Positions 1 to 407 of a DNA stretch of 407 bases are shown piece by piece (within the stretch, counting starts at the first letter, position 1; every line of letters starts with the position of its first letter). The translations under genes and the position numbers were made by a program. Below the pieces are notes generated by a model. That model searched no databases, was not told where the DNA came from, and saw nothing but the letters and a program-made list of their open reading frames with translations. This stretch comes from Escherichia coli (GTDB lineage: Bacteria > Pseudomonadota > Gammaproteobacteria > Enterobacterales > Enterobacteriaceae): NCBI RefSeq assembly GCF_003334335.1, contig NZ_QOWQ01000197.1. One strand, given 5' to 3'.

Positions 1-407
1 ATCATCACGCCAATGGAGCCGATACGGGATGTCTGGGTAACCAGCCGTCGGGAGCAGGCCGACGCCAGCAGCATGGCTGCAGAACAGGCCGTGTCATTGC
101 ACAGTGCCCAGACCGGCTTCTGCTGACTAAGTCGGTAAATCATGTCAGCACAGTCAAACGCACCGGCGGCCTGCCCGCCCGGACTGTCAATGTCCAGCAG
201 TACACCCCGCACCTGGCTATCCGCCATTGCCTGCTGAAGACAGGCGACAATGCCGTCATAGCCTGTCATTCCGGAAAATGGCCGCATACCCCCCAGCCGG
301 TGCACCAGCGTGCCTGTCACCGGCAGTACAGCAATACCGTTCACCACCCGGTAAACACGGGCCGGTCGTTTACCTCCGGCCATGTACTCGTCCGTTTCAG
401 CCAGCAT
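1..407 (-). CDS. Phage prohead (head maturation) protease, peptidase S49 family, lambda gpC-like; partial CDS (C-terminal part continues beyond position 1; N-terminus may lie beyond position 407)
   Basis: The minus-strand frame with codons at 407-405 down to 5-3 is open for all 135 codons. The translation contains the blocks RVYRVVNGIAVLPVTGTLV, RPFSGMTGYDGIVA, GVLLDIDSPGG-AGAFDCAD, KPVWALCND-CSAA-LLASA-SRRLVTQT and IGSIGVMM. From memory these align closely with lambda gpC (…SYQVMNGIAVLPVSGTLV…QPYSGMTGYNGIIA…GILLDMDTPGGMVAGAFDCAD…KPVWALANDMNCSAGQLLASAASRRLVTQTARTGSIGVMM…). Codon choice is typical of enterobacterial genes (CTG, CCG, GGC, GCC). The opposite strand shows only short interrupted ORFs. 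Confidence 0.9.
   Translation of the reverse strand, partial: MLAETDEYMAGGKRPARVYRVVNGIAVLPVTGTLVHRLGGMRPFSGMTGYDGIVACLQQAMADSQVRGVLLDIDSPGGQAAGAFDCADMIYRLSQQKPVWALCNDTACSAAMLLASACSRRLVTQTSRIGSIGVM
81..83 (-). other. Codon for the predicted nucleophilic serine of the S49 protease (Ser109 of the window translation, in the motif N-D-T-A-C-S-A-A)
   Basis: Plus-strand aga at 81-83 is TCT (Ser) on the minus strand. It sits in the block ALCNDTACSAAMLLAS, which aligns with the lambda gpC block ALANDMNCSAGQLLAS. As I recall, the Ser in that block (Ser166) is the proposed catalytic residue of gpC. The assignment rests on remembered homology, not on computation. Confidence 0.5.

Follow-up and report, generated by a model that had tools for sequence, protein, structure and literature searches.

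Among the lambdoid phages, the best described counterpart of the gene considered here is gene C of lambda, whose product, gpC, is presented in PMC3224144 as a head protease that acts together with Nu3 and with B, the portal protein; a 2010 work by Medina et al., "gpC is the viral protease", is cited there. A second described member is gene 5 of phage 21, which is annotated as "head-tail preconnector gp5" in GenBank entry M81255 and as "capsid protease/scaffolding protein" in the complete phage 21 genome OL657228, a record that re-annotates this gene family (PMC9119081). A search for experiments on the phage 21-type protein found none in the searchable literature. A third and more distant point of reference is provided by the signal peptide peptidase A (SppA) proteins of bacteria (PDB 3rst, 4kwb and 3bez; family S49 in MEROPS), which have a homologous peptidase domain and a nucleophile serine motif that can be aligned with that of the phage proteins. 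Unlike SppA, the phage protein is not a host membrane protein; it has a scaffold domain fused to it, and its gene belongs to a phage head gene cluster.

The stretch of DNA analyzed here, which we refer to as the window, is 407 bases long and, as we are almost certain, represents an internal, antisense-oriented part of the head-maturation protease gene in an Escherichia coli phage or prophage of the phage 21-like lambdoid kind, for whose product a role in head assembly may be proposed by analogy with lambda. Six-frame translation of the window reveals a frame on the minus strand, running from base 407 to base 3, that is free of stops for 135 codons across all 407 bases, and stops occur in each of the remaining five frames. 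The product of the open frame is a fragment of 135 residues, MLAETDEYMAGGKRPARVYRVVNGIAVLPVTGTLVHRLGGMRPFSGMTGYDGIVACLQQAMADSQVRGVLLDIDSPGGQAAGAFDCADMIYRLSQQKPVWALCNDTACSAAMLLASACSRRLVTQTSRIGSIGVM. The ORF list for the window contains four short ORFs only, of 30-39 residues, and the long minus-strand frame is missing from it because this frame extends past the window on either side. The end-to-end open frame and the identities of 100% to phage PhiR5_1 and 98.0% to phage 21 together point to the assignment of positions 1-407 (minus strand) as an internal fragment of a phage 21-type head-maturation protease/scaffold gene, i.e., a homologue of lambda C and of phage 21 gene 5. The window corresponds to positions 160-566 of the PhiR5_1 coding sequence, or codons 54-188 and two bases (the first and second) of codon 189 in a gene of 501 codons. 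It therefore represents 27% of the gene, and the start, the stop, the lysine discussed below, the scaffold part and the start of the nested scaffold (Nu3) gene all lie outside it. The G+C content is 60.7% for the window as a whole and 65.9% at third codon positions. Residues 1-11 of the fragment (MLAETDEYMAG; positions 375-407, minus strand) form a variable linker ahead of the protease core, as judged from the local alignment with lambda, which begins at residue 12 and leaves the linker with no alignable counterpart in gpC. The leading ATG of this linker encodes an internal methionine, which maps to residue 54 of the full PhiR5_1 protein, and is not a start codon.

The closest relatives of the window are found among phages and prophages of the Escherichia genus. 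A megablast search of the phage collection detected 20 records that match the window at the DNA level, 19 of which are Escherichia phages. Escherichia phage PhiR5_1 (gene XSB41320) is identical to the window over its whole length (100% of nucleotides), followed by five PhiR12 phages at 99.3%, by phage 21 (M81255 and OL657228) and ev017 at 98.0%, and by Gifsy-1 of Salmonella at 75.5%. Equally perfect matches (100% nucleotide identity over the window) are provided by several prophages of E. coli, for example by the gene for the S49 family peptidase WP_198800527 in strain STEC17-183, so that the PhiR5_1 and prophage genes show no difference within the window. Relative to phage 21 gene 5, the window differs at eight nucleotides over all 407 bases, seven of which are silent third-position changes, and 134 of the 135 encoded residues are identical; the sole amino-acid difference is at Ser94 of the fragment, which is an arginine in phage 21. 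The likeness to phage 21 gene 5 extends to the gene as a whole, since both genes have 501 codons, follow the portal gene and have a putative nested scaffold start at the same codon, and the PhiR5_1-type allele is 94.4% identical to its phage 21 counterpart in protein sequence. On sequence grounds, then, the host genus is Escherichia and the lineage is that of the phage 21 type. This lineage is not a new one, as its head genes are in GenBank under M81255. An initial annotation of the window had placed it in a distinct lambdoid lineage that is not lambda and had called for a database search to find the nearest relative and the host genus; the lineage has now received a name, that of phage 21-type head gene 5, with PhiR5_1 as the nearest relative and Escherichia as the genus.

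The divergence of the window from lambda was measured against gene C as translated from NC_001416, positions 4418-5737 (gpC, NP_040584). An ungapped local alignment matches fragment residues 12-135 (window positions 3-374, minus strand) to gpC residues 69-192, with 84 of the 124 aligned residues identical (67.7%), and the corresponding tblastn match to lambda (E = 2e-39) is far beyond chance. At the nucleotide level, identity to lambda C is 67.5% in a codon alignment of 372 nt and, by blastn, 68.7% over 371 nt, and lambda is absent from the megablast matches of the window in the phage collection. The mismatches with lambda are distributed 31/28/62 over the three codon positions, i.e., third positions carry twice the mismatches of first or second positions, and the differing codons include 47 that are synonymous and 40 that are non-synonymous. 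Taken together, this distribution and the preponderance of silent changes relative to phage 21 constitute a pattern typical of purifying selection. The pairwise alignment with gpC had been proposed in the initial annotation, and its result agrees with the clear homology and the many substitutions that were described there from the letters of the sequence. The two window peptides that had been quoted as examples are both present in the minus-strand frame: the block VTGTLVHRLGGMRPF (positions 276-320, minus strand; fragment residues 30-44), for which the lambda counterpart is VSGTLVSRTRALQPY (gpC residues 87-101), and the block ADMIYRLSQQKP (positions 114-149, minus strand; fragment residues 87-98), for which the lambda counterpart is ADIIARVRDIKP (gpC residues 144-155). 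The latter block includes Ser94, and phage 21 has ADMIYRLRQQKP in its place. Both lambda peptides, as given in the initial annotation, are exact in gpC as translated from NC_001416. Over the whole gene, the 21-type protein and gpC belong to the same family, occupy the same place in the head cluster and would have the same nested-gene layout, and the presumed catalytic positions are conserved between them (lambda S166 and K218 vs. 21-type S162 and K214), although the identity of the full-length proteins is only about 45% and gpC has 439 residues as compared to 501. Most of this difference in length results from the presence of three copies of a C-terminal module in the 21-type protein and of one copy in lambda.

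The encoded segment is predicted to make up the first half of a serine peptidase domain of the S49 (SppA-like) type, the nucleophile serine included. Membership of the fragment in peptidase family S49 is indicated by its profile match and by the conserved serine: residues 93-135 (positions 3-131, minus strand) match positions 3-45 of the 154 in the Pfam model Peptidase_S49 (PF01343; E = 9.6e-09), and NfeD1b_N and CLP_protease, which are related Pfam families, are matched more weakly. Among the NCBIfam models, the SppA domain model TIGR00706 (SppA_dom) is matched at E = 1.2e-15, under its curated cutoff, by the fragment and at E = 3.2e-32 by the full protein. The solved structures with sequence similarity to the protein are SppA proteins only, and for 3rst and 4kwb the fragment gives E-values of about 1e-06 and the full protein 3.5e-16. 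By alignment, the presumed nucleophile is encoded by a TCT codon at positions 81-83 (minus strand), which specifies Ser109 of the fragment, equivalent to Ser162 of the full-length protein and to Ser166 of lambda gpC; we take the lambda residue to be the one that was tested in gpC. The A-C-S of the window aligns with A-A-S in the motif GSMAASGG of Bacillus subtilis SppA (3rst). In the identical gene at its full length, Lys214, which lies within SGAHKVDG about 52 residues beyond the serine, aligns to the SGAH-A of 3rst, in which the alanine is, we assume, residue 199, where a lysine was mutated to alanine in the crystallized protein. The aligned serine and lysine positions presumably correspond to the Ser/Lys catalytic pair of SppA (Ser147/Lys199), with the lysine as general base.

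The placement of the gene among its neighbors was read from the PhiR5_1, STEC17-183 and phage 21 copies, the window itself being without flanking genes. PhiR5_1, phage 21 and the 100%-identical STEC17-183 copy of E. coli all show a gene of 1,506 bases (501 codons) that overlaps the upstream portal gene by 11 bases, with the decoration and major capsid genes following downstream. The gene order Nu1-A-W-B-C-D-E-FI-FII-Z-U-V is kept in lambda and phage 21 as well as in PhiR5_1 and a prophage of E. coli. In the record of phage 21, a scaffold gene is annotated as nested in the same frame, with a start at codon 302 and a ribosome-binding site, an arrangement that resembles the nesting of Nu3 within C of lambda, and codon 302 of the PhiR5_1 gene is likewise an in-frame ATG with GGAGG upstream, a putative scaffold start that lies outside the window. 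The protein identities between PhiR5_1 and phage 21 are mosaic around the protease gene: they are 93-99% for W, B, C, D and E, and lower for Nu1 (64%), FI (57%), Z (67%) and U (82%); the Z and U proteins of phage 21 are 99% and 97% identical to those of lambda. The position of the window is therefore well within a 21-type block that is conserved and has recombination joints as its bounds.

Several other features of these genomes were observed in passing. Within PhiR5_1 protein residues of about 314-466 (about 6781-7239), there are three tandem modules of about 45-50 residues each, with the pattern …IMxxxEAKGRExLAxxLAxxPGMTVExARxILAA…, and an equivalent array exists in phage 21; lambda gpC/Nu3 has one copy. 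Two sites in the phage 21 record, at 5314-5327 and 5548-5561 on the minus strand, are annotated as predicted matches to the consensus for CII binding (ttgynnnnnnttgy); both are antisense to the protease/scaffold gene, within it and downstream of the window. The STEC17-183 prophage (NZ_CP075652.1, 52715-93121) ends beside a truncated ydfJ gene and has a late region that is Stx-phage-like, with a DNA methyltransferase gene, three tRNA genes and a gene for a SASA-family esterase, as well as a gene for a YadA-like protein after the tail fibre genes. No stx genes were found in the unannotated 970-base gap between the tRNA and esterase genes of this prophage, the place expected for them, where the ORFs are short and unconvincing only.

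We met no evidence in this analysis against the reading of the window as part of a phage 21-type protease gene, and the alternatives to this reading fare poorly. The initial annotation had allowed that a near-identical match to lambda gene C would mean that the substitutions were a product of a wrong lambda sequence and that the window is simply lambda. Lambda C does belong to the same gene family, but the quoted lambda peptides proved exact, lambda is not among the megablast matches, and the real gene C is far from identical to the window in either DNA (67.5-68.7%) or protein, so that direct alignment with gene C of NC_001416 rules out this identification altogether. A cellular origin of the sequence, as part of the host signal peptide peptidase SppA or SohB, might be suggested by the SppA proteins that head the solved-structure and NCBIfam matches. 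The scores are nevertheless far under the NCBIfam cutoffs, at 57.8 bits vs. 155.45 for TIGR00706, 39.8 vs. 311.45 for TIGR00705 and, with the full protein, 36.9 vs. 259 for SohB. Scores of this order are to be expected because the protein is a phage paralogue, and they argue only against a cellular SppA. In addition, the match to PHROG 53, "head maturation protease", has an E-value of 4.3e-72, and every close match of the window lies, in phage or prophage, between the portal and decoration genes of a head cluster. With such scores and such a prophage context, cellular SppA and SohB can be set aside, and we give this origin almost no credence.

Two further alternatives accept or bypass the homology rather than dispute it. 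Many lambdoid prophages are defective, and the copy from which the window derives might be a dead remnant of such a prophage, related to gpC by descent and encoding no working protease. The window covers just 27% of the gene, and up to five matching places per genome occur in E. coli, both of which are compatible with decay. However, the 135 codons are unbroken, the identical sequence belongs to a gene with its full 501 codons both in a phage record that names E. coli C as the host and in a prophage whose late-gene cluster is complete, and seven of the eight differences from phage 21 are synonymous. We consider a dead remnant to be quite improbable. It is also conceivable that the plus strand holds a separate feature, for instance an RNA or a small antisense ORF, since short plus-strand ORFs exist at positions 13-126 (37 aa) and 142-237 (31 aa). 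Chance would, however, be expected to produce ORFs this short opposite a G+C-rich gene, and the pattern of substitutions is consistent with selection acting on the minus-strand frame. A search of the window against Rfam gave no match at E <= 1, and an inspection of the window for sigma-70 promoter-like sites, terminator-like sites and direct or inverted repeats found none. In view of the lack of RNA, promoter, terminator or repeat signals, a plus-strand feature was rejected as having hardly any likelihood, and the two short ORFs are most likely chance occurrences.

The phage 21-type protease gene, which thus remains the preferred reading of the window, is widely distributed in E. coli. A match to the window exists in 1,934 of the 5,426 complete genomes of this species (about 36%), with 3,017 matching places on chromosomes and 9 on plasmids. 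Among the E. coli records that match, 77 do so at 99% or more and 1,765 at 95-99%. An additional 68 E. coli records match the window at 60-80% only and may carry lambda-type or other alleles. The RefSeq name for the gene, "S49 family peptidase", is found in thousands of E. coli genomes. The initial suggestion that such a lineage is common in enterobacterial prophages is thus well founded for E. coli, where nearly all of the matching places are chromosomal.

The role of the 21-type protein in head assembly, and the identity of its substrates, can be proposed by analogy with lambda. According to this analogy, the full 501-residue protein would join the procapsid together with the portal by means of its C-terminal part, which would be identical in sequence to the scaffold protein that is translated separately. 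With its Ser162/Lys214 pair, the peptidase domain would next digest the scaffold and itself and trim further proteins of the head, so that the shell would be emptied before DNA packaging. It is further imaginable, though we think it unlikely, that the three C-terminal modules of the 21-type protein alter the stoichiometry of procapsid assembly or the binding to shell or portal. This idea about the modules is based on the whole gene, and the window bears nothing on the module copies. If it were true, a common prophage allele of E. coli would build heads somewhat unlike those of the lambda textbook model.

The finding is a correct one and belongs to ordinary, already-known biology, and the window opens no new question. 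Its value is essentially that of a correct annotation, which names the lineage (head genes of the phage 21 type, as opposed to lambda) and the host, Escherichia coli, for an allele that is among the commonest prophage head genes.
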